Below, piece by piece: positions 4,865-56,117 of a stretch of 64,000 bases of DNA; the first letter of the stretch is position 1, and each line of letters begins with the position of its first letter. The stretch lies in the NCBI GenBank assembly GCA_020053355.1, contig JAGVNI010000007.1, forward strand, positions 5,557-69,556. Reading direction: 5' to 3'. Source of the DNA: an archaeon (GTDB lineage: Archaea; Micrarchaeota; Micrarchaeia; Anstonellales; Bilamarchaeaceae). A model generated the notes under the pieces. It was not told the DNA's origin. It saw only the letters and a list, made by a program, of their open reading frames with translations, and did no database searches. The position numbers and the translations under genes were made by a program.

Positions 4865-6835
4865 TCAGATGAAGTTGGTTATGTCGCGCCTCTTGAAGAC
4901 GATGAATGCCATCAGCACAGCAAGGAGCACGAAATACGAGAGGAGCGCCGCGATGTCCCCGGCCGGGTCGCCGTTCGTCACCAGCACGACCTTGAATATG
5001 CTGGTCACATGCGAAAGCGGCAGCAATTGCTGGAGAATCTGCGTGTACGCCGGGAGCAGGTCGGGCGAGAATATGATGTTGCCCAAAAACAGCATCGGGA
5101 TGGCGAGAAGGAGGCAGCTTTGGATGGCCGCGGACTCGCTCCTTGCATAGAACCCGACAAGCACCCCGATGGACGAGAGCACGAGCGAAGATATCGCAGT
5201 CCCCCAGAGCAGCATCAAGATGCTTTCAGGAGGCTTTACCCCGAAAAGCACCAGCGCGACGACAAGAATCAGCGCAATCTGCACAAAAGACATCAGCATC
5301 AGCGCGGCTATCTTGCCGATTACGATGTCCGTCAGCGCGCCGGGGGCGAGAAGCGCCCGGATTATCGTCTTGTGAGTCTTCTCGCGGACCAGGCTTATCG
5401 AGCCCAGGAGGAAGCATGAGAAGAGCAATGAGACCGCAATCACCTGCGGCATTATGAAATCCACGAAGCTGGACCGCTCGTACTGGTTCTCCACAGTGAC
5501 CGAAAGCGGCGATGCGATTGTGTCCGGGTCCTTGCCAGTCTGCTCCGCGACTGTCGCCTGGAGCGAGCCTATCAGCGCGTCAACCGATGCAGTCTGGGCG
5601 AGCGCATCGTCAAGGGTGCTGTCTATCTCCGATGTGGCCGACTTGATGTCGCCAAGCAGCCCCTTCAGCTTTGCGACCTCAATCCTCGCGGAGCCGAAAG
5701 ACGCGTTCAATTGGGTGAGTCTCTTGGAGACGTTGTCCAAGGCGGCGCCAAGCTGCGCGGTTTTCCCGGCATTCAACCTGGCTGTTTCGAGTTCCGACGA
5801 AAAGTCCGCAAGCGAATCCCCGAACGAATCCAGCGTCGCATTCAATGCCCGAAGTTCGGCCATCTCTTCCTTTGCGTCGATTATCTGGCCCTGCGTCATC
5901 GTCCGCAAGGACTGCAGGGAGCCTATATTGAGGTCGAGCGCGGCAATCACGACCGGGTCCGATGACCCGGCTTTAATTGCTTCCAGCCCCGCAATCGATG
6001 CGCTCAAGCTCGAAACGGTGCTGTTCATCTGCATCATCTGCGCGCCCAGCTTGTCGTGCGTGCTCTGCACGGTGTCTTCGGACTGGTTCAGCGCGTAGCT
6101 GGCGTTGAACAAGAAAGCATCGGTCTGGTCAAGAAGCTCATCGTTCCCCGCCGACACGTCCGCGAATTCCTCCTTCTGGGACTCCAGCTGAGCCTGGAGG
6201 GCCGCGATGTTCATCGACGCCGAATCCAGGGAAGTCGCCAGCGAATCGATTTCAATGCCGTCTATGCCCTGCCTTATCTGGGCTAGCGATGCCTTGGTCT
6301 GGTTCATATTGGTGCGCGTCTGCTCTATGCCCGATGCGAGGGAGGCGGTCGAGGCGTTCAGGTCCCGCAGCTCCCCCCAGGCGGAAGTCACGTAGCTTTT
6401 CGTGATGTCTGTCGACGACGCCTCAATCACTGAGGACATCGCGGCAAGGACTGACTGCTCGAGCGCCAAATCCGAGTTGTCCACGACCACGCGGACGCTC
6501 GAGCCGTTGCCCTTCCGGAGCGATTCCTCGAAATCCTGGGGCACGATGATGACGGCCCTCAGCCTGCCGTTCCGGAAAGCCGTCATCGCATCCTCCTCGC
6601 TTCCGAACTCCTGGAGCTTGAATGCCTGCGATTCGTTCAGCCCGGAAAAAAGCGGGCTGGAGCTGATGTTCTCAGGGCCGGCAAGGCCGATTGGAAGCCC
6701 GTTGATTTCCATCGAGCGGAACGATGTGCCCATGAAAAGCATGACAAAGACGGGGAAGGCGAGCAGCACCGCGAGCATCGTGCGGTCGTGCAACACTTCG
6801 AGCATCTCCTTCCGGATTGCGCTGAGGATTTTCAT
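4865..6835 (-). CDS. ABC-2 type transporter permease with large extracellular coiled-coil domain (YhgE/Pip-like architecture)
   Basis: Start MKILSAIRKEMLEVL overlaps the ATPase stop (ATGA); one N-terminal TM, about 450 aa Ala/Ser/Leu/Gln-rich extracellular coiled-coil region, C-terminal bundle of 5-6 TM helices typical of ABC-2 permeases. Confidence 0.7.
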   Translation of the reverse strand: MKILSAIRKEMLEVLHDRTMLAVLLAFPVFVMLFMGTSFRSMEINGLPIGLAGPENISSSPLFSGLNESQAFKLQEFGSEEDAMTAFRNGRLRAVIIVPQDFEESLRKGNGSSVRVVVDNSDLALEQSVLAAMSSVIEASSTDITKSYVTSAWGELRDLNASTASLASGIEQTRTNMNQTKASLAQIRQGIDGIEIDSLATSLDSASMNIAALQAQLESQKEEFADVSAGNDELLDQTDAFLFNASYALNQSEDTVQSTHDKLGAQMMQMNSTVSSLSASIAGLEAIKAGSSDPVVIAALDLNIGSLQSLRTMTQGQIIDAKEEMAELRALNATLDSFGDSLADFSSELETARLNAGKTAQLGAALDNVSKRLTQLNASFGSARIEVAKLKGLLGDIKSATSEIDSTLDDALAQTASVDALIGSLQATVAEQTGKDPDTIASPLSVTVENQYERSSFVDFIMPQVIAVSLLFSCFLLGSISLVREKTHKTIIRALLAPGALTDIVIGKIAALMLMSFVQIALILVVALVLFGVKPPESILMLLWGTAISSLVLSSIGVLVGFYARSESAAIQSCLLLAIPMLFLGNIIFSPDLLPAYTQILQQLLPLSHVTSIFKVVLVTNGDPAGDIAALLSYFVLLAVLMAFIVFKRRDITNFI

Positions 6836-7578
6836 TGGACCACCGGCTTCACGAGGTATGCAAATACATCCTCCATCTGCTTGAGCTTGTATTTTTTCTT
6901 CAGGTCCGCCGGAGTTCCGCTGTCCACGATGCGCCCGGCGAACATGATGGCGACGCGCCCGCAGAGGTGCTCGATCTCCTCCATATAATGCGACGTGATG
7001 ATTATTGTCTTCTTCGTCCTGTGCAATTCCTCTATGACGGCCCATATCTCCCGCCGGACAACCGGGTCGAGGCCGACAGTCGGCTCGTCGAGATACAGGA
7101 CTTTCGGGTCATGGACGAGCGAGCAGGCGATGTTCAGCCTCTTCTTCATGCCGCCGGAGAGCTTGGAAGCGAGCACCCCTCCCTTGTCAGAAAGCTTCAT
7201 CTGCGACAGCAGGCTTTTCACCCTCTCGCCGGCCACGCGTCCCGGCACCCCGAACTGCGACGCGAAGAACTCCAGGTTCTCGCGCACTGTCAGCGTCTCG
7301 TAGAAGGAATCCTCCTGGGTCACGAAGCCGATTTCCATCTTAAGTTTCGCAAGCTCCTTGATGTTCTTGCCGAGAATCATCACCGAGCCGGAAGATGGCG
7401 CAAGCAGCCCGGAGAGCATGTTGAAAGTGGTGGTCTTCCCGGAGCCGTTCGCGCCGAGAAGGCCGAAAACCTCGCCCTCCTCGACGGTGAAGGAAATCCT
7501 GTCCACTATTATCTTTTCGTTTATCACTTTCGCGAGTTCGCTGACGATGACTGCCGGAGGCATGACGATTTCTCTCAT
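6832..7578 (-). CDS. ABC transporter ATP-binding protein
   Basis: Walker A GANGSGKTT, signature LSGGMKKRL, Walker B LYLDEPT, H-loop; translationally coupled to the permease. Confidence 0.9.
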   Translation of the reverse strand: MREIVMPPAVIVSELAKVINEKIIVDRISFTVEEGEVFGLLGANGSGKTTTFNMLSGLLAPSSGSVMILGKNIKELAKLKMEIGFVTQEDSFYETLTVRENLEFFASQFGVPGRVAGERVKSLLSQMKLSDKGGVLASKLSGGMKKRLNIACSLVHDPKVLYLDEPTVGLDPVVRREIWAVIEELHRTKKTIIITSHYMEEIEHLCGRVAIMFAGRIVDSGTPADLKKKYKLKQMEDVFAYLVKPVVQ

Positions 7579-7662
7579 CGGCTGTTTTTAACATCTTCGC
7601 AGGGGCAGGCTTTCCCGCGCATTCCGGGGGAATTTAAACATCCTTGGCCGACATATGGTGTT

Positions 7663-8511
7663 ATGCGCCGGGGGAACCTGACAAATCTCGAATCCTTCCT
7701 GTCAGATTTTGCAGGCGGGCTCACATCCGCATTCCCCGGGAAGGTGCATGTGATAGGCGTTGCAGGAAGCGCGGCCCGCGGCGATTTTCAGCCAGGGCAG
7801 AGCGACATCGACATGCTGATTGAAGTGAAAGACGCGCAGGATGTCGATGCGGTCGGCGATGCGGCGCAAGCGCTGTTCTGGCGGCTGGACGAATTGCACG
7901 GCCTAAAACTCCAAGAGGCTTACGCGAAAAAAGGCGGCGCATGCCCAAGCCTGCCGGCTGCCGGGTCCAGCCGCAAGCCCTTCATCATTCGGGCCCGCCA
8001 CTCTAAGAGAGCGGGCGGCGGGAAGCTCACGCCACTCCGGATTCCCTTCCTCTACCGCCTCTTCATGCTTGAACTGACGCGGAACTCCCTCCGCTCCGGC
8101 CGTTTGCTGTACAAAAGCCCCGAAGCGATGGCAGAAAAATCCCATTATCCAGGCGAGACCCTGCCGGAAAAATTGGCTACATACAGCTTCATCGTATCCC
8201 TGGCGATGCTCCCCATCTCAATCATCCAGCCTGACAAGGCTCTTAGGCGCTCAGCCCGTGCCGTCCTTTTCACATACGAGGACGAGCCGGATTTGTTCCG
8301 CAGCGTCCGCAATCCCTCGTCCCTTCCTTATGCGCCTGCCCCGCCCGCTATGCTCCGCTTCGGATTTGAAGCGCTCCATATCAAGAAACACGGGACAGAG
8401 CATTTCTCGTACCCGGGCAAGGTCGCATTCTGCCTCATCGCCCCGCTTGTGATATGGTATAAGAACCTGGCGACAGTCCTGGCGGAGGGCTCCTCTAAGA
8501 ACGGCAGATGA
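7663..8511 (+). CDS. nucleotidyltransferase-domain protein (Pol-beta superfamily)
   Basis: GSAARGDFQPGQSDIDMLIEV = GS-x9-DxD minimal nucleotidyltransferase motif near the N-terminus; first in-frame ATG at 7663. The upstream part of the long 6835..8511 ORF is antisense to the ABC ATPase and is rejected. Confidence 0.55.
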   Translation: MRRGNLTNLESFLSDFAGGLTSAFPGKVHVIGVAGSAARGDFQPGQSDIDMLIEVKDAQDVDAVGDAAQALFWRLDELHGLKLQEAYAKKGGACPSLPAAGSSRKPFIIRARHSKRAGGGKLTPLRIPFLYRLFMLELTRNSLRSGRLLYKSPEAMAEKSHYPGETLPEKLATYSFIVSLAMLPISIIQPDKALRRSARAVLFTYEDEPDLFRSVRNPSSLPYAPAPPAMLRFGFEALHIKKHGTEHFSYPGKVAFCLIAPLVIWYKNLATVLAEGSSKNGR

Positions 8512-8633
8512 CGATATAAATCTTTCCAGCCCTATAATATACTGTCTGAGGTGGGAAGCTGAACGTAGATTATCGGTTTGCCGAGAACTCGATTAGCAAG
8601 GGTTCAAAGTCATTCTATTTCGCATCGAAATTC

Positions 8634-9437
8634 ATGGGGCGTGAGCGGCGCAACGCCTACTACGCGATTTACGCATTCTGCAGGCACACCGACGACCTTA
8701 TTGACGATAACGAGGGCAACCCGCGGCTCCAGCGCATAATGATTCGGAACTGGAAAAAGCGCTTCCTCGAAGCCTACAAGACGGGCGGCTCTGAAGACCC
8801 GGTCCTCAACCCTTTCATCCATGTCATGAAGAAATACCGCATCCCGCTGCGCTATCCGCTCGAATTAATCCGCGGAGTGAGCATGGACATCTCGAAAAAG
8901 GAATATGGGACTTTCACCGAACTGCGCAGGTACTGTTTCCGTGTCGCTTCAGTTGTGGGCCTGATGCTCATGCGCACCCTTGGCATCGAGAACGCCAGGA
9001 AATCCAAGCACTGCGCAATCAGCCTCGGCATTGCGATGCAGCTTACCAACATCCTGCGCGATGTCGGCGAGGACGCCCGCATGGGGCGCGTGTATTTCCC
9101 CAAGGACGAATTGGCGCGGTTCGGGCTGACCATAGACGATATCCTGTCCCACCGCAAGACCGAGCGTCTCATGAGATTTTTAAAATTCCAGGTGGAACGC
9201 GCCCGCAGCTATTATCGGGAAGCGATGCAGAGCATCGCGACCATCCATTCGGAAGTGCGGATGGTGATTGCGCTCGCCTCGACGCTCTACCGGGAGATAC
9301 TCACTGTCATAGAGGAGAACGAATACGAGGTATTCGCAAAGCGCGCCTACGTGAACACCTATCGGAAGATGCTCCTGTACGCCCGACTTGTGCTATTCGG
9401 ATACCCCCAACCACAGCCTTGCCAGAGCGGCGCTTGA
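8634..9437 (+). CDS. phytoene/squalene synthase family protein (trans-isoprenyl diphosphate head-to-head condensing enzyme)
   Basis: YAFCRHTDDLID (first Asp-rich motif) and LTNILRDVGEDARMGRVYFP (second motif). The conserved N-terminal block SKSFYFAS is encoded in-frame upstream of the annotated ATG (see findings). Confidence 0.8.
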   Translation: MGRERRNAYYAIYAFCRHTDDLIDDNEGNPRLQRIMIRNWKKRFLEAYKTGGSEDPVLNPFIHVMKKYRIPLRYPLELIRGVSMDISKKEYGTFTELRRYCFRVASVVGLMLMRTLGIENARKSKHCAISLGIAMQLTNILRDVGEDARMGRVYFPKDELARFGLTIDDILSHRKTERLMRFLKFQVERARSYYREAMQSIATIHSEVRMVIALASTLYREILTVIEENEYEVFAKRAYVNTYRKMLLYARLVLFGYPQPQPCQSGA

Positions 9438-9438
9438 C

Positions 9439-10698
9439 ATGCTTGGCACTGCACTGGCCCTATTTGAGATGAAGCGCAACCAGTGGCGAAGCCCACACGA
9501 CCTGCGCGAAATCTCGGAAAAGAAGATGCTCGCCCTGCTTGCGCATGCCAAAGGCACGACCTCGTTCTACAAAACGCGCCTTTCCCTCCCTGCAGCCGCG
9601 GTGCGGAGCCTGGATGACCTCCCTTCCGTTCCGACGACCAGCAAGGCGGACGTCCGGGACCAGCCTGCCTCTTTCATCAGTTCCGCATTTCCCCAATCAT
9701 CGCTCCGCCAGACGCACACCTCCGGTTCCACCGGGGTCCAGGTCCCGCTCTATTTCACGGAATCCGAATCCTCATACGGAATCGCGCTCGAGACGCATCA
9801 ATTGACAGAGTGCGGGGCCGGGCCATTCGACCTCCAGGCAAGGATAACCCATTACGAGTCGGCGCCGAACCTCCTCCAGCGTTTTGGGGTTTTCCGGTGC
9901 AGTTACCTGCCGGTGCAAGGCGAAGAATCCGACAACCTGCGCGCTCTCTCGCTTATGCGCCCAGGCATCGTAATCTCATACCCGTCCATTCTCCTGCCGC
10001 TCGCGCGCATCAACCAGTCGGAGAAGCGGAACCTGAAATTCAAGATGGCATTGGCCGGCGGAGAACTGCTCGCGCCATCTGCAAGGCAGGCCATATCCAG
10101 CTCGTTTAGCTGCCCAATCTATGACCGCTACGGTTCCATGGAAAGCTCATGGGCCGCATGGGAATGCAAGGACGGTTCCCTCCATATCCAGGACGACTGG
10201 GTTTACCTGGAAATCCTTGATAAGCAGGGCGTCCCGGTCAAGGATGGCAGGGAGGGCAGCATCGCCCTCACCCCCCTCTGGCGCAAGGCGATGCCGCTGA
10301 TTAGGTACCAAAGCGGCGACATCGGCGCAATTGGCGGGCGCTGCCGCTGCGGGCGCGGGCTCCGCACGCTTAAACTAAGGGCGGGGCGCGAAGACGATGT
10401 CATCGTGCTTCCAAGCGGGCGCATCCGCTCAGCGCGCTCGATAAACCTCATGGACGACATCCGGGGCATACTCGCCTACCAGATTGTCCAGGAAAGCCCG
10501 GGGCTCTTCATATTCCGCTACGTCCCAGGGACCGGTTTGGGCGAGCAGGGGAAGTCAGAAATCCAAAGAAGAATCGGGCATGGCTGCCTCGGCGAAAAAG
10601 TCCAGGTGGAGTTCGTTTCCCTGGATTCCATCCCAAGGGGCCGGACCGGAAAACTCCGGACGGTCATATCCAAAGTGCGGCCGGATGCGCGCGTTTGA
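9439..10698 (+). CDS. PaaK / coenzyme F390 synthetase-like adenylate-forming enzyme (paralog A)
   Basis: TSGSTG phosphate-binding motif, YGSME, RYQSGD, CRCGRG...DDVIVLPSG and terminal GKLRTV-type Lys motif; ATG at 9439 lies 1 nt after the stop of the upstream gene. Confidence 0.75.
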   Translation: MLGTALALFEMKRNQWRSPHDLREISEKKMLALLAHAKGTTSFYKTRLSLPAAAVRSLDDLPSVPTTSKADVRDQPASFISSAFPQSSLRQTHTSGSTGVQVPLYFTESESSYGIALETHQLTECGAGPFDLQARITHYESAPNLLQRFGVFRCSYLPVQGEESDNLRALSLMRPGIVISYPSILLPLARINQSEKRNLKFKMALAGGELLAPSARQAISSSFSCPIYDRYGSMESSWAAWECKDGSLHIQDDWVYLEILDKQGVPVKDGREGSIALTPLWRKAMPLIRYQSGDIGAIGGRCRCGRGLRTLKLRAGREDDVIVLPSGRIRSARSINLMDDIRGILAYQIVQESPGLFIFRYVPGTGLGEQGKSEIQRRIGHGCLGEKVQVEFVSLDSIPRGRTGKLRTVISKVRPDARV

Positions 10699-10752
10699 AT
10701 CTGTGCGCTTGAGCGGCATGCGTTTGCAAAAAGGGGAAAACCGGCGATTGAC

Positions 10753-11373
10753 ATGGAGATTGACATCAGAAAAGCCCGGCACGGGGATTTCCCGGCGCTC
10801 CCCTCGATTTTCCGGAATGCCAATGACACCCTGAGAAAGAGCCGCGGAGGCACCCACCCCGATGCGGATGTGGAACTGCTGAACCGGATGTCGGATTCAG
10901 GATTGCTGGGAATCCTCCGCAGGGGCGCAGTCATTTTCGTAGCCGAGGTGAAGGGCACCAATCAATTGGTTGGGATGGGGGCAATCACCGATAACCTCCC
11001 TGCGCGCCTGATGGGTTCCACCTACAGCCGCAGCCACTACGTCCTTGAATCATTCCAGAAGGGGAAATCCGGGGTCAGTGTGGGCCGGCTTCTTCGTGAA
11101 GCGACGCTGGCCGAGGCCAGGAGGCTCGGCTTCCGGAAGATGTACGGCTACTCGACCCCTGAGGCGGCCGGCTACCATAAGAAATTCGGGGCGGTGTTCT
11201 ATCCGCGCTACAACGCCTGCCTGGTGGGCACGGTGGTCCTGCAATATTACGAGATAGAACTGCGCAAAAGCATCCTGAACGGCCTGCATGTCGAGCCGTA
11301 TGCGTACCGGGCCGGGATGCTTCTGGGGTCTGCCCTCGGGTTCATCCGAAGGCGCATGCGTTCCGGGCGCTAA
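10753..11373 (+). CDS. GNAT-family acyltransferase-like protein (paralog A)
   Basis: About 200 aa with Q-K-G-K-S-G-V-S-V-G loop resembling the GNAT acyl-CoA binding motif; clear paralog of the 18232..18867 protein (shared LRKSRGG.HPDA and YYEI.LRKS...EPY...AGM blocks). Confidence 0.55.
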   Translation: MEIDIRKARHGDFPALPSIFRNANDTLRKSRGGTHPDADVELLNRMSDSGLLGILRRGAVIFVAEVKGTNQLVGMGAITDNLPARLMGSTYSRSHYVLESFQKGKSGVSVGRLLREATLAEARRLGFRKMYGYSTPEAAGYHKKFGAVFYPRYNACLVGTVVLQYYEIELRKSILNGLHVEPYAYRAGMLLGSALGFIRRRMRSGR

Positions 11374-11470
11374 ACTGCGGAATCCGCTTTTCGTCATCTT
11401 TTCGTCATATGACGACTTGCCCGGCGGCAGCCGCATAGGTTTAAAATTTCGTTCCGGCTGCTAACACAAT

Positions 11471-12556
11471 ATGCGCATTGTCCTCAAGCTAGGCAGCTCC
11501 CTGCTCAATGGCGGGCGGGGGGTGAATACGATATTCATCGACCAGCTTGCGAGCCAGATACTCGGGATGGAAGGCCACGAATTCGCGATTGTCACATCTG
11601 GCGCCATCTCGACCGGGATGAAGAAGCTGAACCTCGCGCAGAAACCCAAGGACGTGGCCATGCTGCAGGCGCTTGCGGCAATCGGCCAGAGCGACCTCAT
11701 GAACGCATACGAGAACGCGTTCGAAGACCGGAGGACGCTCGCGCAGGTGCTTCTCACAAACTACGATTTCTCGAACCGCATGAAATACATGAACATCCGG
11801 AACACCCTCAATACGCTGCTTTCCCACAAGGTGATACCGGTGATAAACGAGAACGATACGGTGACGGTGCTCGACATCAAGAAATCCGCGTTCGGCGACA
11901 ACGACGCCCTCGCGGCGCATGTGGCTGTCGCGATTGACGCCGACCTCCTGCTGATTTTCACGGATGTGGAGGGCCTCTACGACCGCAATCCCACGGATGC
12001 CGGCGCGACGCTGATACGCGAGGTCAAGAGCGTGACGGATACTGAGCTGGGGATGTGCTCCGGCGAAAGCGCGCTCGGCCGGGGCGGCATGGCCGCGAAG
12101 CTGCGCGCGGCCAAGATAGCGACCGAAGCCTCGGTGAAAGTCATCGTGGCGAATGGCACGGCCAAAGACGCCCTTCGCAAGGCCGTTGCGGGGGAAATCG
12201 GGACGTCGTTCGTCCCGGCGCAGACGCCGAAATTGTCCGAAGGGAAGCACTGGCTCGCCTTCGCATCCGAACCTAAGGGCCGCATCATCATAAAGGAAAG
12301 CGCCATGTCGTGCGCGATAGGCAAAAGCTGCGGAATCGCCCCGGGCGATGTCACCGGAGTCAGCGGCAATTTCGACAAGGGTGATGTAATCGAGCTGGCG
12401 TCTTCGGACGGGAGAGTGCTCTGCAAGGGCATCACGAATTATTTCTCGCATGAACTGGAGCGCATCAAGGGCAAGGACCTTGAGTCGATATGCCGGGAAC
12501 TGGGCTTCGTATATACGGAAGTCGTGGGAAGCTCGGACATGGCGGTCATAGGTTGA
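11471..12556 (+). CDS. proB: glutamate 5-kinase with C-terminal PUA domain
   Basis: Amino-acid kinase family N-terminal domain (VLKLGSS...VTSGAI) and C-terminal PUA; length 361 aa typical of ProB. Confidence 0.9.
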   Translation: MRIVLKLGSSLLNGGRGVNTIFIDQLASQILGMEGHEFAIVTSGAISTGMKKLNLAQKPKDVAMLQALAAIGQSDLMNAYENAFEDRRTLAQVLLTNYDFSNRMKYMNIRNTLNTLLSHKVIPVINENDTVTVLDIKKSAFGDNDALAAHVAVAIDADLLLIFTDVEGLYDRNPTDAGATLIREVKSVTDTELGMCSGESALGRGGMAAKLRAAKIATEASVKVIVANGTAKDALRKAVAGEIGTSFVPAQTPKLSEGKHWLAFASEPKGRIIIKESAMSCAIGKSCGIAPGDVTGVSGNFDKGDVIELASSDGRVLCKGITNYFSHELERIKGKDLESICRELGFVYTEVVGSSDMAVIG

Positions 12557-13821
12557 TTCCAAGGGGTGGTGGAGTGGACGCGGAAAAATACGTTTATGGC
12601 CTTCTGGAGGATGCCAGGATTGCCGGGCAGAATCTCGCATCGATGGATGATGCGGGCAGGAATATCCTGCTTGTGCGGATGGCGGCGAAACTGGAAGCGG
12701 ACGCGCAGGAAATCGTCAAGGCGAATGCCTTGGATGTGGATGCCGCAAGGGCAAAGATGACCAAAAGCGAGCTGGACCGCCTCGCACTTAGTCCCGAGCG
12801 AATCAAGGCCATCGCTTCCGACATCCTGGCCGTGGCGAAACTGCCCGACCCATTGAAGGGCGAAGAGAGCTGGGCAGTGCCAAGCGGCCTCCGAATCCGG
12901 AAGGTCCGGGTCCCCTTCGGCGTCATCGGAGTCATTTACGAGAACCGCCCGAACGTGACAATCGACATAGCATCCCTATGCCTGAAAAGCGGGAACGCAT
13001 GCTTGCTGAGAGGGAGTGCCAGCGCATTGAATTCCAACCGCGCCCTGATAAAGGCGATCTCGCCTGTTCTGGAAGCCGCAGGCCTAAAAGGCGCGGTCTC
13101 CTTCGTGGATACGCCGGACCGGAAAGCTGTGGACGTCATGATGAAGGCCCGGGGCCGCCTTGACCTTCTGATACCCAGAGGCGGGGCGGGCCTGATAGCC
13201 CACACGATAGAGAACTCGCGCGTCCCTGTGATAGAGACGGGAACCGGCAACTGCCACGTGTTCGTGGATGAGAGCGCGGATTTGGAGATGGCAAAAAGGA
13301 TTGTCATCAACGCGAAGACGCAGAGGCCGAGCGTGTGCAACGCCGAAGAGAAGCTGCTGGTTCATAGGAACGTGGCAAATGCGTTCATTCCGATGATGGC
13401 AAAAGCCCTCCGGGAAAAAGGCGTGGAAATCCGCGGCTGCTCCGAGACGCTCAAGCTCGTCCCGGACGCGGTCCCAGCCAAGGAAGGCGACTGGCCGAAG
13501 GAATATCTCGACCTGATTATAGCAATCAAGGTCGTCTCCGGAGTGGATGAGGCAATCGCGCACATCAACAAATACAACTCGAAGCACACCGAGGCGATAA
13601 TCACGGAAAACCGCCGGAACGCGGAACTCTTCACCCGCAACGTCGACGCGGCGGCAGTGATGGTGAACGCATCCACACGCTTCACGGATGGAGGTCAGTT
13701 TGGTTTCGGGGCCGAAGTCGGCATCTCCACGCAAAAACTCCATGCAAGGGGGCCGATGGGCGTCCGCGAGCTGACAACCTACAAGTACATAGTCGAAGGG
13801 AACGGGCAGGTCCGCGGGTAG
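12553..13821 (+). CDS. proA: gamma-glutamyl phosphate reductase
   Basis: Aldehyde-dehydrogenase-fold ProA with conserved catalytic Cys (RPSVCNAEEKLLVH); TTG at 12553 overlaps the proB stop (alternative GTG at 12574). Confidence 0.88.
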   Translation: MIPRGGGVDAEKYVYGLLEDARIAGQNLASMDDAGRNILLVRMAAKLEADAQEIVKANALDVDAARAKMTKSELDRLALSPERIKAIASDILAVAKLPDPLKGEESWAVPSGLRIRKVRVPFGVIGVIYENRPNVTIDIASLCLKSGNACLLRGSASALNSNRALIKAISPVLEAAGLKGAVSFVDTPDRKAVDVMMKARGRLDLLIPRGGAGLIAHTIENSRVPVIETGTGNCHVFVDESADLEMAKRIVINAKTQRPSVCNAEEKLLVHRNVANAFIPMMAKALREKGVEIRGCSETLKLVPDAVPAKEGDWPKEYLDLIIAIKVVSGVDEAIAHINKYNSKHTEAIITENRRNAELFTRNVDAAAVMVNASTRFTDGGQFGFGAEVGISTQKLHARGPMGVRELTTYKYIVEGNGQVRG

Positions 13822-13895
13822 CCTATCCGCGCGGGCCGGGCGGGCGTTCGATTGGCTATTAATTGTGTTTGCGCCTAAAACGGCTTGGTGTTCTC

Positions 13896-14654
13896 ATGAG
13901 AATCGCGATTATAGGAATCGGAAGGCTCGGAAGCGTCTTCGCGCGCGTATTGTCCAGGGGCCACGAGCTCCTACTTATCGACCGGGATTTCGAAGCCGCC
14001 AGGGTCGTGGCATCCGAAATCGGCGCGCAGCCCATCAAGGACATTGCGGAAGCGAGGACGTGCGACATGGCGATAATCACCGTCAAGCCCGCGCATGTGG
14101 AAGAAGTCGTCCGGCAAATCAAGGACGCGCAGCTAATCGTATCGTGCGCTGCCGGGGTTCCAATCCGGAAGCTCGAATCCTTCGGCGCGGAGAGGGTAAT
14201 CCGCGTCATGCCGAATATCTGCGCGGAAGTCGGCGAGGCGGTGATAGCCTACGCTCTCCATCCCGAAGTCGAGAAGAAGGAAAAGGTTTTCATGACCGCG
14301 TTTTCCTCGCTTGGAATGTGCATCAAGACCGACGAGAGCCATCTCGACACCATCACCGGGGCATCAGGCTCGGGCCCTGCGTTCGTCGCCTTCTTCGCCG
14401 AAGCGATGATTGAGGAAGCCGTGAAAAACGGGCTTGCCCGCGAGACCGCGGAAAAATGCGTCGCGCAGACGTTCCTTGGCACGGGGAAGCTCATGCGCAG
14501 CGGCTGGAGCGCGCAAAAAATAATCGAGACGGTCGCAAGCCCCGGGGGGACGACCGAAGCCGGCCTCAAGATGCTCGAATCGAAAGGCGCGAACAAAGCC
14601 ATCCACGAGGCTGTCCGCTACGCAGCGCACAAGGCCCGGGAGCTTGGAAAATAG
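13896..14654 (+). CDS. proC: pyrroline-5-carboxylate reductase
   Basis: N-terminal Rossmann motif IAIIGIGRLG and the conserved C-terminal P5CR dimerisation region (PGGTTEAGL). Confidence 0.85.
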   Translation: MRIAIIGIGRLGSVFARVLSRGHELLLIDRDFEAARVVASEIGAQPIKDIAEARTCDMAIITVKPAHVEEVVRQIKDAQLIVSCAAGVPIRKLESFGAERVIRVMPNICAEVGEAVIAYALHPEVEKKEKVFMTAFSSLGMCIKTDESHLDTITGASGSGPAFVAFFAEAMIEEAVKNGLARETAEKCVAQTFLGTGKLMRSGWSAQKIIETVASPGGTTEAGLKMLESKGANKAIHEAVRYAAHKARELGK

Positions 14655-14685
14655 CATTAAAATATCAGGCTCGCGATAATCCTTC

Positions 14686-15954
14686 GTGGGATTCCCTGAT
14701 TTTCTGGCCGAGGGCCTTGCTTTAGCGTCGCACAGGCGCAACCAGTGGAAAAGCCCGGGCAGCATCGAAGAAATGCAGGGCGAAAAACTCCAAACGCTGG
14801 CCGCCCATGCATTTACGCGCGTCCCATTCTATAAAAATCGGTTCCAGGGCTCCGGCATCAGCGGCATGCGGTCGCTGGAAGACCTCCGGTCGCTGCCAAT
14901 CACGGCAAAGGATGATGTGCGGCGGCATGCAGATGCCATGATTTGCTCAGGGCTTTCCAAGGATTCCCTTTACCGGTTCAGCACGACTGGCACAACCGGA
15001 AGCCCGACCGTCCATTACATGGACCATAGCGACGCCATACGTGGCGCAGCGCTGCGCCAGTTCACATTCATGGAATGCGGTTTTGCGCCCGGCGACATCC
15101 TTGCGAACCTGGCTTTCAGCCGGATGCCCCGCTTCCCCATGCAGCCCCTTCTCTACCGGGTAAAAAGCATCCATCCGGCTGAAGATTTGGAGAAAAGTTA
15201 TCGGGCGCTCAAGGCTGCAGCGCCTTCCATCGTTTTCGCGTACCCCTCCGTGCTCGCCATAATGGCCGACATGAACCTCCGCTCAACCTTTCCGCTGCAT
15301 TTTTCGAAAGCGGTGTCCGTATCGGAGATGTTACAGCCCGGGGCGCGGAAAATCATCCAGGAATCATTCGGGTGCAGCATCCGCAACTATTACGGCTCGA
15401 GCGAATGCTGGGCCATGGCATGGGAATGCGAGAATGGCAGCCTGCACATCAACTCCGATTCAGTTATCTTAGAAGCGGTGGACAGTGCCGGCCTTCCTGT
15501 GAAGGACGGGGAGGTTGGCGACCTGCTGATAACGCTTCTATGGAAGTATTCCATGCCGTTCCTCAGGTATCAAATCGGGGACCGGGGCCGGCTTGGCTCT
15601 CATTGTCCCTGCGGCCGCGGTTTGCAGGTCCTGAAATCTTTGGAGGGGCGGACCACCGACTACATCACCCTGCCCAGCGGCAAGCGCTTCCCGTGGATGT
15701 TCACCGAGACGCCCTTTGGCCAGACGGACGGCATCATCTCTTACCAGGTCGTGCAGGAAACCCGGGGGTCGCTCAATATGAAACTCATCGTGGCGCCGGG
15801 GGCCCCGCCCGGCATAAGGGGCGTTGTGAAATCCAGGCTGCTCTCGTACCTTCCGGAGAAGATGGACATGCAGGTTGAAATCGTGGACAGCATCCAGCGC
15901 TCGGGGCGCGGAAAGGCGCGCGATTTCATATCGAAGATAAAACCCCCGAACTGA
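14686..15954 (+). CDS. PaaK / F390 synthetase-like adenylate-forming enzyme (paralog B)
   Basis: TTGTTGSPT, YGSSE, RYQIGD, CPCGRG...TDYITLPSG, terminal GKARDF; GTG start keeps the conserved N-terminal NQWKSP block in frame. Confidence 0.75.
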   Translation: MGFPDFLAEGLALASHRRNQWKSPGSIEEMQGEKLQTLAAHAFTRVPFYKNRFQGSGISGMRSLEDLRSLPITAKDDVRRHADAMICSGLSKDSLYRFSTTGTTGSPTVHYMDHSDAIRGAALRQFTFMECGFAPGDILANLAFSRMPRFPMQPLLYRVKSIHPAEDLEKSYRALKAAAPSIVFAYPSVLAIMADMNLRSTFPLHFSKAVSVSEMLQPGARKIIQESFGCSIRNYYGSSECWAMAWECENGSLHINSDSVILEAVDSAGLPVKDGEVGDLLITLLWKYSMPFLRYQIGDRGRLGSHCPCGRGLQVLKSLEGRTTDYITLPSGKRFPWMFTETPFGQTDGIISYQVVQETRGSLNMKLIVAPGAPPGIRGVVKSRLLSYLPEKMDMQVEIVDSIQRSGRGKARDFISKIKPPN

Positions 15955-16016
15955 GCATGCCGCGACGGGATGCGGGCATTTAAATTTCGTTCCCCCAATC
16001 ATAACTGGCGGGTACT

Positions 16017-16913
16017 ATGGAAGATGGCGAGAACGAGATTTATGGCATGCCCGGAAGCTCCGAGCTGCCGCTTGCGAGAAAACTCATTATCAATGCGGCG
16101 CTGACAGGCAACTTCTCATCGAAAGCGGCCAACCCGGACGTCCCATGCACCCCGGACGAGATTGCCAATGACGCGCACCGGTGCTACGGGGCCGGCGCGA
16201 CTTTCTTCCACATCCATGCCCGCGAAGACGATGGGAAACCGTCCTGCAGGAAGGAACTGTACGAAGAAATAATATCGAAAGTCCGGAAAAAATGCCCGCT
16301 CGGCATCATATGCGCGACGACAAGCGGCCGGGTGTTCAAGACGCTCGAGCAGCGCTCGGCCGTGCTTGATTTGGAAGGCGATGCGAGGCCTGATTTCGCC
16401 TCCCTTTCCATGGGCTCGATGAATTTTCCGACTGAACCCAGCGTCAATTCTCCTGAGATGATAGAGCGCCTTGCCAGGCGCATGATGGAGCGGGATATCC
16501 GGCCCGAACTGGAGGTTTTCGAGACCGGGATGATTAATTATGCCGCGTACCTCAGGCGCAAGGGGTTCTTCAAGGCACCCCTGTATGTCAACCTTTTCTT
16601 CGGCCTTCTTGGCACCATGCCCGGGCGCTTCGTGGACATCGTCCACCAGGTCAGCAGCCTCCCTCCGGATTCGGTATGGGGGGCGGCCGGTGGCGGGCGT
16701 TTCCAGCTTCCGGTGAACATGTCCGCGATGGTCATGGGCGGGCATGTCCGCGTCGGCCTTGAGGACAACCTCTACTATGACTATGGCAAGACCGTCCCGG
16801 CCACCAACGTGATGCTCATCAAGAGGATCGCCCGTATCGCGGGCGAGCTTGGAAGGCCCATCGCAACTCCTAACGAGGCAAGGGAAATCCTCGGGATGAC
16901 GGAGAGGAGATGA
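16017..16913 (+). CDS. BKACE-family (DUF849) beta-keto-acid cleavage enzyme, 3-keto-5-aminohexanoate cleavage enzyme-like
   Basis: TIM-barrel Kce-like signature: INAALTG, HIHARE, conserved Glu/His metal ligands; about 290 aa. Confidence 0.7.
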   Translation: MEDGENEIYGMPGSSELPLARKLIINAALTGNFSSKAANPDVPCTPDEIANDAHRCYGAGATFFHIHAREDDGKPSCRKELYEEIISKVRKKCPLGIICATTSGRVFKTLEQRSAVLDLEGDARPDFASLSMGSMNFPTEPSVNSPEMIERLARRMMERDIRPELEVFETGMINYAAYLRRKGFFKAPLYVNLFFGLLGTMPGRFVDIVHQVSSLPPDSVWGAAGGGRFQLPVNMSAMVMGGHVRVGLEDNLYYDYGKTVPATNVMLIKRIARIAGELGRPIATPNEAREILGMTERR

Positions 16914-18235
16914 CCTGGCTCGGGGGAAAAATCATGGGAACATTGGATGGCGCCTGGAATCTCGCGCGTTTCCTTTCAGAGCAATGGAAGGGGCCGGACG
17001 AACTGCGGAAGCTGCAGGGGCGGCGCCTGGAAAAAGCCCTTGAGCTGTCTTATTCCGCCCCGTTCTACCGGAAAAAGATGGACGCCGCGCACCTTCGCCC
17101 ATCCGGAGGCATGGAAACCCTTCAGGAGCTTCCGGTGACGACCAAGGATGACATCCAGCGCGACCCGGATTCATTCCTGTCTTCTCTCCGCCAAGAAACG
17201 CATGTCAGTCATGAGACGACCGGCTCCACCGGCAAGCCCCTTAGGGTATTGATGGACCGCAAATCCGCGACCCTGCGCACCTCCCTCCTCTTCTCGAACC
17301 TGTTTTCCTGCGGAATAAAGCCGTTCAGCCTGACTGCCAAGCTTGTTTTCAAGGGCAACTCCGGGCAATACGGGGCGCTCCGTTCCTATGGGATACTGCC
17401 CATCCTATCCCTGGACATCCTGGATGACGAGAGGAAAAACCTGGAAATCATCCGTCGCGCCAAGGCAGAGGCGCTTTGCTACTACCCTTCCGCGACCACG
17501 CTCCTTGCCCGGGCGAATTTGGAATCAGCTAAGCCGCTGCGGCTCAAGCGCGTCCTTTCCGGTTCCGAGCTGCTGACGCCGGACTGGCGCAAGCTTCTTG
17601 AGGAATCATTCTCCTGCCCTGTATTCGACCTCTATGGATGCTGGGAGTTCGGCTCGATAGCCTTTGAATGCCCGGAAGAGCACGGCTTGCATGTGAATAC
17701 GGGCACATTCTTCATGGAAATCCTGGACTCCCGCGGGCGCCCGTGCGGGAACCGGCCCGGCAGGGTCGTCATGACCTCGCTAAGCAACATGGCGATGCCG
17801 CTCGTGCGTTACGATTTGGGGGACATCGCAACATGGGGCGGGCAATGCCCCTGCGGCCGCGGCCTTCCCCTCATAAAATCGCTTGAAGGCAGGGCTGATG
17901 ACATGGTCGTCCTGCCAAGCGGCACGCTCCGCTCCCCTCTTACGTTTCGGTTCACGGATTTGGAATGCGTCGCCAAGGGAATCCTCATGTACCAGCTTGT
18001 CCAGGAAAAAGAGGGCCTCTTCGTGTTCCGATACGTGCCTTCGGCCATAGGCCTTCCGGAGGGCTCAAAAAAATACATCGAGAAGCGGATAGTGATTGCC
18101 TGTCTCGGGGAGCCCGTAGTGGTGGAATTCGAGGAGGTGGAGGAAATAAAACGCAACCGCAGGGGGAAACTGGACCGGCTGATTTCCAGAGTGTCGCGGC
18201 GGCGCTCAATCCGGGCAGGCGGGGGCCCATCATGA
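16910..18235 (+). CDS. PaaK / F390 synthetase-like adenylate-forming enzyme (paralog C)
   Basis: TTGSTGKP, YGCWE, RYDLGD, CPCGRG...DDMVVLPSG, terminal GKLDRL; ATG overlaps the BKACE stop (ATGA). Confidence 0.75.
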   Translation: MTWLGGKIMGTLDGAWNLARFLSEQWKGPDELRKLQGRRLEKALELSYSAPFYRKKMDAAHLRPSGGMETLQELPVTTKDDIQRDPDSFLSSLRQETHVSHETTGSTGKPLRVLMDRKSATLRTSLLFSNLFSCGIKPFSLTAKLVFKGNSGQYGALRSYGILPILSLDILDDERKNLEIIRRAKAEALCYYPSATTLLARANLESAKPLRLKRVLSGSELLTPDWRKLLEESFSCPVFDLYGCWEFGSIAFECPEEHGLHVNTGTFFMEILDSRGRPCGNRPGRVVMTSLSNMAMPLVRYDLGDIATWGGQCPCGRGLPLIKSLEGRADDMVVLPSGTLRSPLTFRFTDLECVAKGILMYQLVQEKEGLFVFRYVPSAIGLPEGSKKYIEKRIVIACLGEPVVVEFEEVEEIKRNRRGKLDRLISRVSRRRSIRAGGGPS

Positions 18236-18867
18236 GCGTGGTCCTCCGCGAATACAAATCCACCGACCTTCCGGAGGTCGCGCAGGTCGTCAGGGACGGC
18301 TTCAACACGCTCCGTGAAAGCCGCGGCGGCCAGCACCCGGATGCCGAACTCGACAAATGGCTTTCAATGGGCGATTCTAAAATCGTCGCTTACGTCCTTT
18401 GCAGTGCGCAAGTATTCGTAGCCTATGATGAGGATACGGGAGAAATAGCCGGGATAGGCGCATTCACCGACCGTCGAATTGACCGAATTCTCGGAAGCGC
18501 CTACGTAAAAGGCCTCTATGTGCGTGAAAAATACCAAAGGGGCAAGGGCGGGGTCAAGGTCGGGAGCATGCTGAAGGACGAACGCATCAGGCGAGCCCGG
18601 GAGCGCGGCCTACGGAAAGTCTACGGTTTCTCTGTTCCGGAATCCAAGGGCTTCCATGAGAAGGCCGGGGCGACATTCTATCCGGAGCACGACTTCCATT
18701 ACATGAATGGCACGGTCCGCCTCGGCTACTACGAAATAATACTGAGAAAAAGCCCGTTGAACCCAGTCCGGATAGAGCCTTATCTCCACAAGGCCGGCAT
18801 GAAGCTCAACTATCTGAAGTGGGGGCTGCGCCGCTTATTGCATATCCCGCAGCTTGAACTTCAGTAA
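18232..18867 (+). CDS. GNAT-family acyltransferase-like protein (paralog C)
   Basis: Paralog of 10753..11373 (blocks LRESRGGQHPDAEL, YQRGKGGVKVG, YYEIILRKSPLNPVRIEPYLHKAGM); ATG overlaps the stop of ligase C (ATGA). Confidence 0.55.
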   Translation: MSVVLREYKSTDLPEVAQVVRDGFNTLRESRGGQHPDAELDKWLSMGDSKIVAYVLCSAQVFVAYDEDTGEIAGIGAFTDRRIDRILGSAYVKGLYVREKYQRGKGGVKVGSMLKDERIRRARERGLRKVYGFSVPESKGFHEKAGATFYPEHDFHYMNGTVRLGYYEIILRKSPLNPVRIEPYLHKAGMKLNYLKWGLRRLLHIPQLELQ

Positions 18868-19914
18868 TGCGGCAATCTTGCCGAGCCCCTTCAGCTTAAT
18901 CCCGGCATCGCCTTCTGAAGAGAAGATGACTATCTCAGCTTTCGCCTGGTCCGCAAGTTCTACTACCGCCTCGGCATCCTTGTCGGCGCGCAGATACTCG
19001 TCCAGCACAAGCAGCTTCTTCACAGCGTATGCCTCGACCGCCTTCTTGACCTCCGAAATCCCGTATGCCGCCCGTCCGGTGTCCTTGTGCACCTCGATGA
19101 GAAGCTCCTCGACCAGCTTCATCTCCTTCTCGAAGCGCTCCTCGCCCATGATTTTCTCGATTACGCCCCGGTTGAACAGTTCGTTCACGCCACTCCGTTC
19201 GGCATAACTGACATTCTCGAAGATTATTCGCTTCAATAGCTCGGGCTTGCGCTTCTCGATGAACTTCTTCAGGTTCTCCTTCGCGAATCCCGGCCCGGCC
19301 ACCACGTATTTTTCCGGGTGGCGTTCAATCTCCGCGGCGATGTCGCCAAAATACTCGCCCTCGGACTTCTCGTAATTGTCGCCCTTCTTGCTCCCAGAGC
19401 TGTAGAACTCCGCCCCGTATTCCACGCCGAACGCCCTCAGCATGGCAGTCAGGGCCTTCTCCTCGTCCATGACGATTATGCGTATCCGCGGCCTCTTGGA
19501 TTCCTTTTCAGCTTCCTGAAGGCGCTTCAATTCGTGCCCTTTCCACACCTTTGTAATCTTGATGCGGTCCCCCGCTTCTACGTCTATCGTATGGTACTTG
19601 CCGAGCTGGATGTATTCCTCCGGCTCCCCCCAGACTATGGGGCCAAGGATGCGCAGGCGGTTCGCGTTCTTCGCGAACTCCACCCTCTCCACATTCACCC
19701 GGATGGTGACCGGCTTCTTCTCTTCCTTGGTGCCGACCTTGTAAGTGCGCATGCTGTGCGACTCGACCATGTCCCCCGGGGCAAGGACCTTGTCCAGGTG
19801 CCACATGTCGTCAAGCGTATCGACCTGGAGCTTCATCTCCCCGGTCTTCCTATCCAGATGCACCACTTTCATGCCATTACCTGCCAATTCAAGCTGCGAA
19901 TATTCCCTGTCCAA
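18835..19914 (-). CDS. pelA: Pelota (Dom34) mRNA-surveillance / ribosome-rescue factor
   Basis: 359 aa eRF1-like three-domain protein lacking a GGQ motif; matches archaeal Pelota throughout. The 3' end overlaps the convergent GNAT gene by 33 bp. Confidence 0.85.
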   Translation of the reverse strand: MDREYSQLELAGNGMKVVHLDRKTGEMKLQVDTLDDMWHLDKVLAPGDMVESHSMRTYKVGTKEEKKPVTIRVNVERVEFAKNANRLRILGPIVWGEPEEYIQLGKYHTIDVEAGDRIKITKVWKGHELKRLQEAEKESKRPRIRIIVMDEEKALTAMLRAFGVEYGAEFYSSGSKKGDNYEKSEGEYFGDIAAEIERHPEKYVVAGPGFAKENLKKFIEKRKPELLKRIIFENVSYAERSGVNELFNRGVIEKIMGEERFEKEMKLVEELLIEVHKDTGRAAYGISEVKKAVEAYAVKKLLVLDEYLRADKDAEAVVELADQAKAEIVIFSSEGDAGIKLKGLGKIAALLKFKLRDMQ

Positions 19915-41988: not shown

Positions 41989-42053
41989 ATTTATGCATTT
42001 CAGTACATTATTTCTTATTTTCTTTCTATTTTGCAAAAATTATCAGAATAAGT

Positions 42054-51534: not shown

Positions 51535-51801
51535 CGCTTATGGCGGGGAACCACCATTCCACCCACCCATCCCTCCTTTTGGTTGGTGGCCAGCCCCCCA
51601 TTATTTTTTTAAACCTGTTTTTCATTTTCCCCAAGCGGCAATGGTTTCGCAATCCTGCCCGGTTTCCTCATCCGGTGCGGGGCCGCTTATAAAAGCCGAT
51701 ATGAATATGCCGAACCGGCCCAGGACAAGACTCGCGTTTATATTCTTTTCTTAGGTAATTGTATTCACTTATTATCGAATGAATATTGAGTGGTGGTACT
51801 G

Positions 51802-56079: not shown

Positions 56080-56092
56080 GTTTAAAATAAAT
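56080..56092 (+). promoter_or_regulatory. TATA-box-like element upstream of gatD
   Basis: tttaaaataaatg about 26-30 bp upstream of the gatD ATG at 56118 (leaderless geometry). Confidence 0.4.
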
Positions 56093-56117
56093 GCCCCCAT
56101 TAATCGTGCGGGAGAAC

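Follow-up and report, generated by a model that had tools for sequence, protein, structure and literature searches.

The type 1 capsule system of Staphylococcus aureus, in which GalNAcA is amidated with taurine, encodes CapK, and AglU of Methanococcus maripaludis is needed for the threonine amide on the N-glycan of this archaeon; either system may be related to the ligases described here, and searches of the literature, covering AglU, MMP1084 and CapK, turned up no characterised amide ligase of the CapK/F390-like type. Archaeal N-glycans contain threonine-amidated uronic acids as well as amino sugars with unusual N-acyl groups, including glyceroyl (PMC11407970). Canonical BKACE (DUF849) enzymes keep a Tyr at position 145, and BsfD, with a Phe at that position, performs C-acetylation without retro-Claisen cleavage (flavophos preprint, 2026, PMC12871164). 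Here we describe a stretch of 64,000 nucleotides from a micrarchaeon of the Bilamarchaeaceae (assembly GCA_020053355.1, contig JAGVNI010000007.1, positions 5,557 to 69,556; hereafter the window), in which ten plus-strand open reading frames between about 8550 and 18867 encode three CapK/PaaK-type adenylate-forming ligases, two GNAT-fold acyltransferases and one BKACE, along with a phytoene/squalene synthase (PSY) homolog and the proline enzymes ProB, ProA and ProC.

Comparison with related loci revealed that this array is a mosaic, with a variable island of ligase, GNAT, BKACE, proB and proA genes inserted between conserved PSY and Pelota genes. We tentatively read the island, with slightly less than even confidence, as an ATP- and acyl-CoA-dependent system for amide and acyl tailoring, most likely of a surface glycan. 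The families of all components are known, and function is assigned here from context. What is unusual, and can be tested, is that BKACE is coupled to a GNAT and that a DPANN archaeon carries arrays of such ligases.

The ten-gene array and its enzymes

An earlier note on this DNA had proposed a co-directional array of ten genes. All ten open reading frames exist on the plus strand and profile searches against Pfam and NCBIfam assigned them to the families named there, each of which was confirmed. The array and its immediate neighbours are as follows.

4865-7045, minus strand: ABC-2 permease (Pfam ABC2_membrane_3); backbone gene outside the island, divergent from the array
6832-7578, minus strand: ABC ATPase (Pfam ABC_tran); also backbone, outside the island and divergent from the array
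7636-8511, plus strand: NTP_transf_2 nucleotidyltransferase (PF01909, E 2.8e-5); frequent backbone neighbour 5' of PSY
8513-8522, plus strand: predicted TATA-like box GATATAAATC, about 35 nt 5' of the PSY coding sequence
8550-9437, plus strand: phytoene/squalene synthase, PSY (PF00494, 259 bits); start uncertain, first canonical start ATG 8634
9439-10698, plus strand: ligase A, CapK/PaaK-type adenylate-forming enzyme, 1 nt past the PSY stop
10753-11373, plus strand: GNAT1, Micrarchaeota-specific GNAT-fold acyltransferase
11402-11415, strandless: palindrome TCGTCATATGACGA, putative operator 5' of the proB TATA-like box
11438-11455, plus strand: predicted TATA-like box GGTTTAAAAT with downstream TTTCGTTCC, 16-33 nt 5' of proB
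11471-12556, plus strand: proB, glutamate 5-kinase with PUA domain (TIGR01027, 345.6 bits; cut-off 186)
12574-13821, plus strand: proA, glutamate-5-semialdehyde dehydrogenase (NF001221, 576.5 bits; cut-off 289)
13896-14654, plus strand: proC, pyrroline-5-carboxylate reductase (TIGR00112, 200.7 bits; cut-off 196.75)
14686-15954, plus strand: ligase B, CapK/PaaK-type (profile and paralog alignment)
15977-15993, plus strand: predicted TATA-like box CATTTAAATTTCGTTCC, 24-40 nt 5' of BKACE
16017-16913, plus strand: BKACE (DUF849), zinc TIM-barrel enzyme of a non-Kce clade (PF05853, 308 bits)
16910-18235, plus strand: ligase C, CapK/PaaK-type, overlapping BKACE by 4 nt
18232-18867, plus strand: GNAT2, paralog of GNAT1, overlapping ligase C by 4 nt (PF00583, 23.2 bits; cut-off 20.7)
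18835-19914, minus strand: Pelota, conserved downstream border of the variable slot

Recomputed spacers are 1, 54 and 97 nt up to proB, then 17 (proB-proA) and 74 (proA-proC), and finally 31, 62, -4 and -4. The values reported earlier hold except for the two between the proline genes, which had been given as -4 and about 40: starting proA at GTG 12574, in line with orthologs, leaves a proB-proA spacer of 17 nt and yields a ProA of 415 aa as in those orthologs, whereas the spacer becomes -4 only if TTG 12553 is used, and the proA-proC spacer is 74 nt with ATG 13896, a start that gives a ProC of ortholog length (252 aa). Two related loci (L010 and L025; loci are given by L numbers and related proteins by P numbers) have the same gene order as the window, so the arrangement is not due to chance. 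The spacers contain no riboswitch or other RNA with an Rfam match and no tRNA. An anti-phage defence island was considered and rejected, as PADLOC returned no match for the ligases, GNATs or BKACE and only weak MNT-like (nucleotidyltransferase) and coiled-coil (ABC-2 permease) matches.

Pairwise identity among ligases A, B and C is 37-38%, and the three share an invariant set of motifs: the P-loop (TSGSTG, TTGTTG and TTGSTG), YG..E, RY..GD, GR.DD and a C-terminal GK. These adenylation motifs align with those of 4r1l, 9s3l and 6wuq, and the three proteins retain an intact adenylation core. The C-x-C-G-R-G motif that had been singled out is a trait of the family rather than a special feature, because the solved PaaK-like enzymes 4r1l, 9s3l and AjiA1 (6wuq) share its C-x-C-G. 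The top NCBIfam match of the ligases is the DVU_1553-type AMP ligase (about 140 bits). An identity as PaaK was rejected for all three (TIGR02155 / NF041878, 76-115 bits; cut-offs 646 and 700), as was that of an F390 synthetase (TIGR03335, 45-58 bits against a cut-off of 458.7). We also discarded a PaaK-type C-terminal domain or paa context: alignments to PDB structures end at about residue 336, homologs carry CapK_C and there are no paa genes nearby. Indeed, the PaaK-like N-domain of ligase C (residues 30-336) matches 4r1l with an E value of 2e-28 and its C-terminal part of about 100 aa has no PaaK match, and P0023, which is 94% identical to ligase A, carries PF27533 (CapK_C) together with PF00501 in precomputed matches. 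CapK_C is recorded for such homologs; the Pfam search of the window proteins themselves reported no such model. In a neighbour-joining tree ligases A, B and C form deep orthogroups with recent duplications in B (two to three copies in L001, L010 and L025), and orthogroup A includes the GNAT-adjacent ligases of the glycan clusters L006 and L007.

GNAT1 and GNAT2 are 42% identical, and both the GNAT fold and the Q/R-x-x-G-x-G/A acyl-CoA-binding motif were confirmed. Their family is small, with 22 clusters among 5.8 billion proteins and 27 clusters at E<=1e-30 among 1.84 billion representatives, followed by a sharp drop to generic GNATs. The named homologs of the GNATs, the ligases and PSY all come from Candidatus Micrarchaeota or Bilamarchaeum (DPANN). 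One family member on a JGI contig (P0263, 515 aa) is fused to a C-terminal region of about 320 aa that has no Pfam match and, judged by eye, may resemble FemAB/CelD-like acyltransferase domains. At another locus (L004/L005, 9099-11514) a PIG-L de-N-acetylase lies directly 5' of an overlapping GNAT-BKACE pair in an integrase/resolvase-rich region, an arrangement as would be expected if an amino sugar were first stripped of its N-acetyl group and then acylated anew.

The BKACE far exceeds the Pfam cut-off (308 bits against 24.8) and matches the Kce structure PDB 2y7d with an E value of 1e-62. Its zinc ligands (H46, H48 and E230), the catalytic Glu E143 and also R226 and D231 are conserved. By contrast, in the window BKACE and all nine archaeal orthologs Tyr145 is replaced by Phe and Glu14 by a hydrophobic residue (Phe in the window); Glu14 binds the amino group of the substrate in Kce. 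Together with an equivalog score below threshold (281 against 382), these two positions led us to reject an identity as Kce, and the substrate of the window enzyme likely differs from that of Kce. None of kamA, kamDE, kdd or kal lies near the window BKACE. As the uncharacterised structure PDB 3no5 also has Phe at the Tyr145 position, a changed chemistry of the window BKACE is a possibility only. In L010, the closest syntenic genome, BKACE is split into two open reading frames (16736-17630) by an apparent frameshift and GNAT2 is truncated (19196-19606); both changes look like decay or errors of assembly, a sign that the island may be in flux.

These assignments bear on an improbable interpretation of the set as scavenging or catabolic, in which the ligases would act as acyl-CoA synthetases on host-derived acids, BKACE would convert beta-keto acids to acetoacetate and acyl-CoA for carbon and energy, and the GNATs would be detoxifying or regulatory. 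The source databases do name the ligases phenylacetate-CoA ligase, their N-domains match PaaK structures and canonical BKACEs are catabolic. However, the scores against the PaaK equivalogs are far too low, the C-terminal domain is not that of PaaK and, judged from homologs, appears to be CapK_C, the island is devoid of ring-opening, beta-oxidation and thiolase genes, arrays of six to at least nine paralogs with one GNAT are unlike a catabolic pathway, and homologs occur in glycan contexts and as fusions to GT2 domains (see below).

A variable island in a conserved backbone

In 15 of the 16 other loci with a member of the GNAT family, BKACE, CapK-like ligases or both adjoin the GNAT gene (L017 is the exception). 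In L002, L004, L008 and L020 the GNAT and BKACE genes either overlap or directly adjoin each other, and in L023 an unrelated GNAT of 155 aa occupies the same overlapping position before BKACE, a non-orthologous replacement that keeps the architecture. The ligase copies in the slot vary from none (L002) through three (window), four to five (L010, L001) and six (L016, L018) to at least nine (L023). The co-occurrence of ligase, GNAT and BKACE anticipated for related genomes was thus borne out by neighbourhood comparison in some 16 loci, and, because these families recur together and the adenylation core is intact, acid activation coupled to acyl transfer, as originally suggested, is reasonable chemistry.

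The flanks of this slot are stable. Across Micrarchaeota contigs the upstream order of Trp/Tyr-tRNA synthetase, ABC-2 permease and ATPase, and nucleotidyltransferase is kept, as is the downstream order of Pelota, a CxxCxxCC protein, a giant surface protein, RadA and GAPDH. The ABC-2 permease and ATPase occupy the same place in nearly all Micrarchaeota PSY loci, whether ligases are present or not, and the nucleotidyltransferase is found in one or two copies in L001, L008, L010, L012, L024, L025 and L033. PSY itself, with both Asp-rich motifs (DDLIDD and DVGED) in its translation and CrtM (8is6) and phytoene synthase (5iys) as nearest solved structures, has homologs in more than 100 clusters across Micrarchaeota at 58-99% identity. 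Against the CrtB and HpnD models PSY reaches about 232-234 bits, under their cut-offs, and it passes no equivalog cut-off; the window lacks a desaturase gene and any other gene of carotenoid or hopanoid synthesis.

We obtained an unbiased sample by scanning metagenome contigs with PSY as the sole query and annotating what lay around it through BLASTP comparison with the window proteins, which gave 15 informative loci with a Micrarchaeota-type PSY (>=67% identity) and usable downstream sequence. Twelve of these 15 have no ligase, GNAT or BKACE downstream. Pelota follows PSY directly in L027, L029, L030, L032, L033, L037 and L038 and after one or a few unrelated open reading frames in L031 and L035; in the ligase-free loci L036, L039 and L041 proC follows PSY and is succeeded by Pelota. 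Ligases after PSY were observed only in L024, L025 and L026. Conversely, the GNAT-BKACE pair is found without PSY in L002, L004, L006, L013, L015 and L020. The presence of PSY therefore does not depend on the island, and its function is presumably independent as well. Since they are kept in loci that lack the island, we assign PSY and the ABC-2 transporter to the backbone. The expected co-occurrence of PSY with the ligases, GNAT and BKACE fails in this sample, which does not support the proposal that PSY tailors the product, and on the same loci we rejected a role of PSY in the island pathway.

The same data make an isoprenoid connection highly improbable, one in which acetoacetate from BKACE would be converted by one of the ligases to acetoacetyl-CoA and enter the mevalonate pathway towards PSY, so that all would form a single lipid pathway. 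In its favour, the translational coupling of PSY to ligase A recurs (window, L001, L009, L010, L012, L023 and L025), a thiolase with a DUF35 partner lies near the slot in L002, and the mevalonate pathway is reported in about half of Micrarchaeota (PMC8407392). Yet most unbiased PSY loci lack ligase and BKACE, the BKACE-GNAT pair exists without PSY, the ligases are not acetoacetyl-CoA synthetase-like, and PSY and island presence across genomes appear uncorrelated. The 1-nt junction between PSY and ligase A is compaction and no evidence of a shared pathway.

The 5' end of PSY is anomalous. The array had been taken to begin at 8533, where there is no start codon and which is followed by an in-frame TGA at 8547-8549. 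Conserved coding sequence (GGKLNVDY...SKSFYFASKF) starts right after this TGA, with no ATG, GTG or TTG before ATG 8634. Orthologs start with ATG AGA AAA GGT GGG AAG (L012, L025) or GTG GGG AAG (L009); relative to them the window is about 10 nt shorter at this point, and its GTG at 8551 misses the reading frame by one base. Possible causes are a fault in the assembly, a genuine loss of the N-terminus or the use of a non-canonical start.

The ABC-2 permease, which is divergent from PSY in nearly all Micrarchaeota loci, has an N-terminal part of about 450 aa with coiled-coil-like weak matches. The exporter and PSY may be functionally linked, for example in the export of an apolar isoprenoid.

Proline genes and predicted transcription units

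ProB, ProA and ProC all score above their equivalog cut-offs. In the slot, proB and proA occur only in ligase-bearing loci (window, L001, L008, L010, L012 and L025) and in no ligase-free locus, and in L008 a ligase gene stands between proA and proC. At the analogous place, L006 and L007 have an ELFV amino-acid dehydrogenase and a TrpB-like enzyme. Because a survey of DPANN archaea does not report complete ProABC for Micrarchaeota (PMC8407392), we regard the pro genes as accessory here. proBAC may plausibly supply an amino acid to the ligases.

The array had been thought to form one or two transcription units. Predicted TATA-like boxes, however, lie 25-38 nt 5' of five genes, namely PSY (8513), proB (11438), proC (13856), ligase B (14655) and BKACE (15977), and those of PSY and proB are kept in orthologs: the PSY box with its flanks (GACGATATAAAYCTTTCCAGC) in L009, L010, L012 and L025, and the proB region GGTTTAAAT in L001, L010 and L012. 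AT-rich boxes are found at the position of the BKACE box in L001, L009 and L010. This pattern suggests three to five transcription units, and the predicted boxes would likely define them as PSY-ligA-GNAT1, proB-proA, proC(-ligB) and BKACE-ligC-GNAT2.

About 25 nt 5' of the proB TATA-like box lies a perfect 14-nt palindrome (TCGTCATATGACGA), and a near-identical sequence (TTCGTCATATGTCGA) is present at the same place in L001, L010 and L012. A partial direct repeat (TTTTCGTCAT) at 11388 and 11399 accompanies it. The palindrome is a candidate transcription-factor operator of the proline genes, and its conservation together with that of the TATA-like box argues for separate, regulated transcription of proB. 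We also considered a near-identical element of 15-16 nt, TTTAAA(A)TTTCGTTCC, which occurs in the 64 kb only at 11440-11455 and 15978-15993, before proB and BKACE. None of the related loci has it, and 20 of 100 shuffled sequences contain two copies of the 9-mer by chance, so it is probably not a conserved co-regulatory site. Scans for sigma-70 promoters and intrinsic terminators, which are not applicable to an archaeon, gave no excess over shuffled sequence. Elsewhere in the window, a minus-strand gene (40969-42036) encodes a 355-aa protein with two tandem AsnC/Lrp-type helix-turn-helix domains, a candidate amino-acid-responsive regulator.

That the ten genes share no function and are merely packed together in a compact genome is quite improbable. 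Gene density is high throughout the window, there are several internal promoter-like boxes, and PSY and proC behave as backbone genes; against this, the association of ligase, GNAT and BKACE recurs in rearranged orders and in distant lineages, even with a non-orthologous GNAT. This recurrence excludes chance packing for the ligase/GNAT/BKACE core; PSY and the pro genes may be neighbours through packing. An over-reading is thereby corrected, in which tight spacing and coupling in a compact genome had joined isoprenoid and proline genes to an unrelated or loosely related island.

Glycan contexts and comparison with known systems

In four Micrarchaeota/Bilamarchaeum loci (L006, L007, L016 and L018) the GNAT and ligase arrays are embedded among glycan genes, in L006 along with BKACE. 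These genes encode GT4 and GT2 glycosyltransferases, a polysaccharide pyruvyl transferase, a Wzx-type flippase, phosphodiesterases and CysD/CysN-like sulfate-activation proteins. Similarly, in a more distant locus from Nitrososphaerota (L104) two CapK_C ligases lie in a glycan cluster with GFO/MocA oxidoreductases and glycosyltransferases, and immediately after one of them comes a gene for a UDP-sugar 6-dehydrogenase, a kind of enzyme that produces uronic acids. In L022 (Gemmataceae) the order is epimerase, ligase, GT2; glycan-cluster genes of the glycosyltransferase, flippase or nucleotide-sugar class also occur in L021, and P0114, P0117 and P0138 are GT2::CapK_C fusions.

The window itself encodes the oligosaccharyltransferase AglB/STT3 (1037 aa; 52897-56010, plus strand), flanked by FtsZ (51790-52884) and GatD (56091-57431), which indicates that the organism performs N-glycosylation. 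Two genes past the island, a giant protein without Pfam match (21415-25254, plus strand; open reading frame from 21112) starts its signal peptide at Met102 and ends in a transmembrane anchor (residues about 1300-1318) with a basic tail. It contains 12 N-x-S/T sequons where about six are expected, and its synteny is kept at only 38-45% identity between relatives. It looks like an S-layer or surface glycoprotein.

On the basis of these contexts we infer the following tentative route. The CapK/PaaK-type ligases would activate a carboxylate with ATP and join it to an amine (or thiol), forming amide bonds on glycan carboxylates or short amino-acid chains. BKACE would convert acetyl-CoA and a beta-keto acid into an acyl-CoA (or a C-acylated product) for the adjacent, translationally coupled GNAT, which in turn would N-acylate or cap an amine. 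The target would be a sugar or amino-acid unit of a cell-surface glycan, with amino-acid amidation of uronic acids and unusual N-acylation as an example of the outcome, and proBAC, as a separately promoted unit, could provide proline or a glutamate-derived unit to the ligases.

Several points weigh against this proposal. First, no glycosyltransferase, flippase or nucleotide-sugar enzyme is found in or beside the window island (4.8-38.8 kb). Second, no member of the ligase clade, the GNAT family or the BKACE clade has a substrate on record, and the ligases could instead be CoA ligases that feed the GNAT. Third, the co-occurrence counts are not phylogenetically independent, with the pro-containing loci representing about two subclades. 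Finally, the pro genes may be ordinary housekeeping neighbours, since they have their own conserved predicted promoter/operator and proC occurs alone in ligase-free slots.

In a more specific form of the tailoring proposal, which we hold to be unlikely, the ligase arrays (three to at least nine copies) would act in sequence as an amide assembly line independent of the ribosome, nonribosomal peptide synthetases and Mur ligases. Such a line would decorate the surface with amino acids or peptides, with a cap added by the GNAT from a donor made by the Tyr-to-Phe BKACE, and with proBAC or an amino-acid dehydrogenase as feed. If true, it would be a means of diversifying surface chemistry of relevance to host attachment by DPANN archaea.

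Alternatively, the ligases, GNATs and BKACE could make a free small molecule, such as an N-acyl amino acid or a short N-acyl peptide containing proline from proBAC, that serves as compatible solute, signal or chelator and is possibly exported by the ABC-2 transporter; we consider this unlikely. The restriction of proB and proA to ligase-bearing slots, their interleaving with a ligase in L008 and their accessory status in Micrarchaeota would fit such a product, as would the lack of glycan genes in the window island. There is precedent in N-acetylglutaminylglutamine amide, an osmolyte made by a GNAT and a ligase, and PaaK-like enzymes that join acids directly to nucleophiles are named on record (BagE/FevW in NCBIfam, AjiA1 in the PDB). 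On the other hand, the ABC-2 transporter belongs to the backbone and is present without the island, GNAT and BKACE occur without ligase or pro genes in L002, L004 and L013, and a range from no ligase to at least nine fits surface diversification better than one defined solute. Moreover, orthologous modules and distant family members sit in glycan clusters, and these contexts point to surface-glycan decoration instead of the free N-acyl-proline product envisaged in the earlier note.

DPANN archaea attach to host cells, and their surface chemistry is little known. The compact, phylum-specific module of ligase arrays, a dedicated GNAT and BKACE, strongly variable between close relatives, offers concrete candidates for enzymes that add amino-acid amides and unusual N-acyl groups to archaeal glycans, as well as a candidate for a new case in which BKACE chemistry, coupled to an acyltransferase, would serve biosynthesis instead of catabolism.

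Outside the array, the window contains a protein with a GGDEF diguanylate-cyclase domain and an intact GGEEF motif (213-1580, minus strand), which is kept in a related contig (L001, 1-1169); to our knowledge, cyclic di-GMP signalling is not established in archaea.

The window PSY matches the family of CrtB, CrtM and HpnD (PF00494) over its full length, including both Asp-rich motifs, but it falls under the equivalog cut-offs and is kept across Micrarchaeota independently of the island. In relation to Agl-type N-glycan tailoring in Methanococcus and Methanoculleus, the product class would fit and AglB is encoded in the window, whereas Agl-type glycosyltransferases are absent beside the window island. 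The BKACE shares with Kce the TIM barrel, the zinc ligands and Glu143/Arg226/Asp231, but it is paired with a GNAT and not with lysine-fermentation genes. The closest known relatives of the ligases are PaaK-like enzymes with CapK_C (PF27533; COG1541, 'CapK / F390 synthetase-like'), of which searches of the literature yielded no biochemically characterised example. The N-domains of the ligases align with 4r1l, 9s3l, 6wuq and 6siw, and the Micrarchaeota ligases occur as arrays of three to at least nine deep paralogs.

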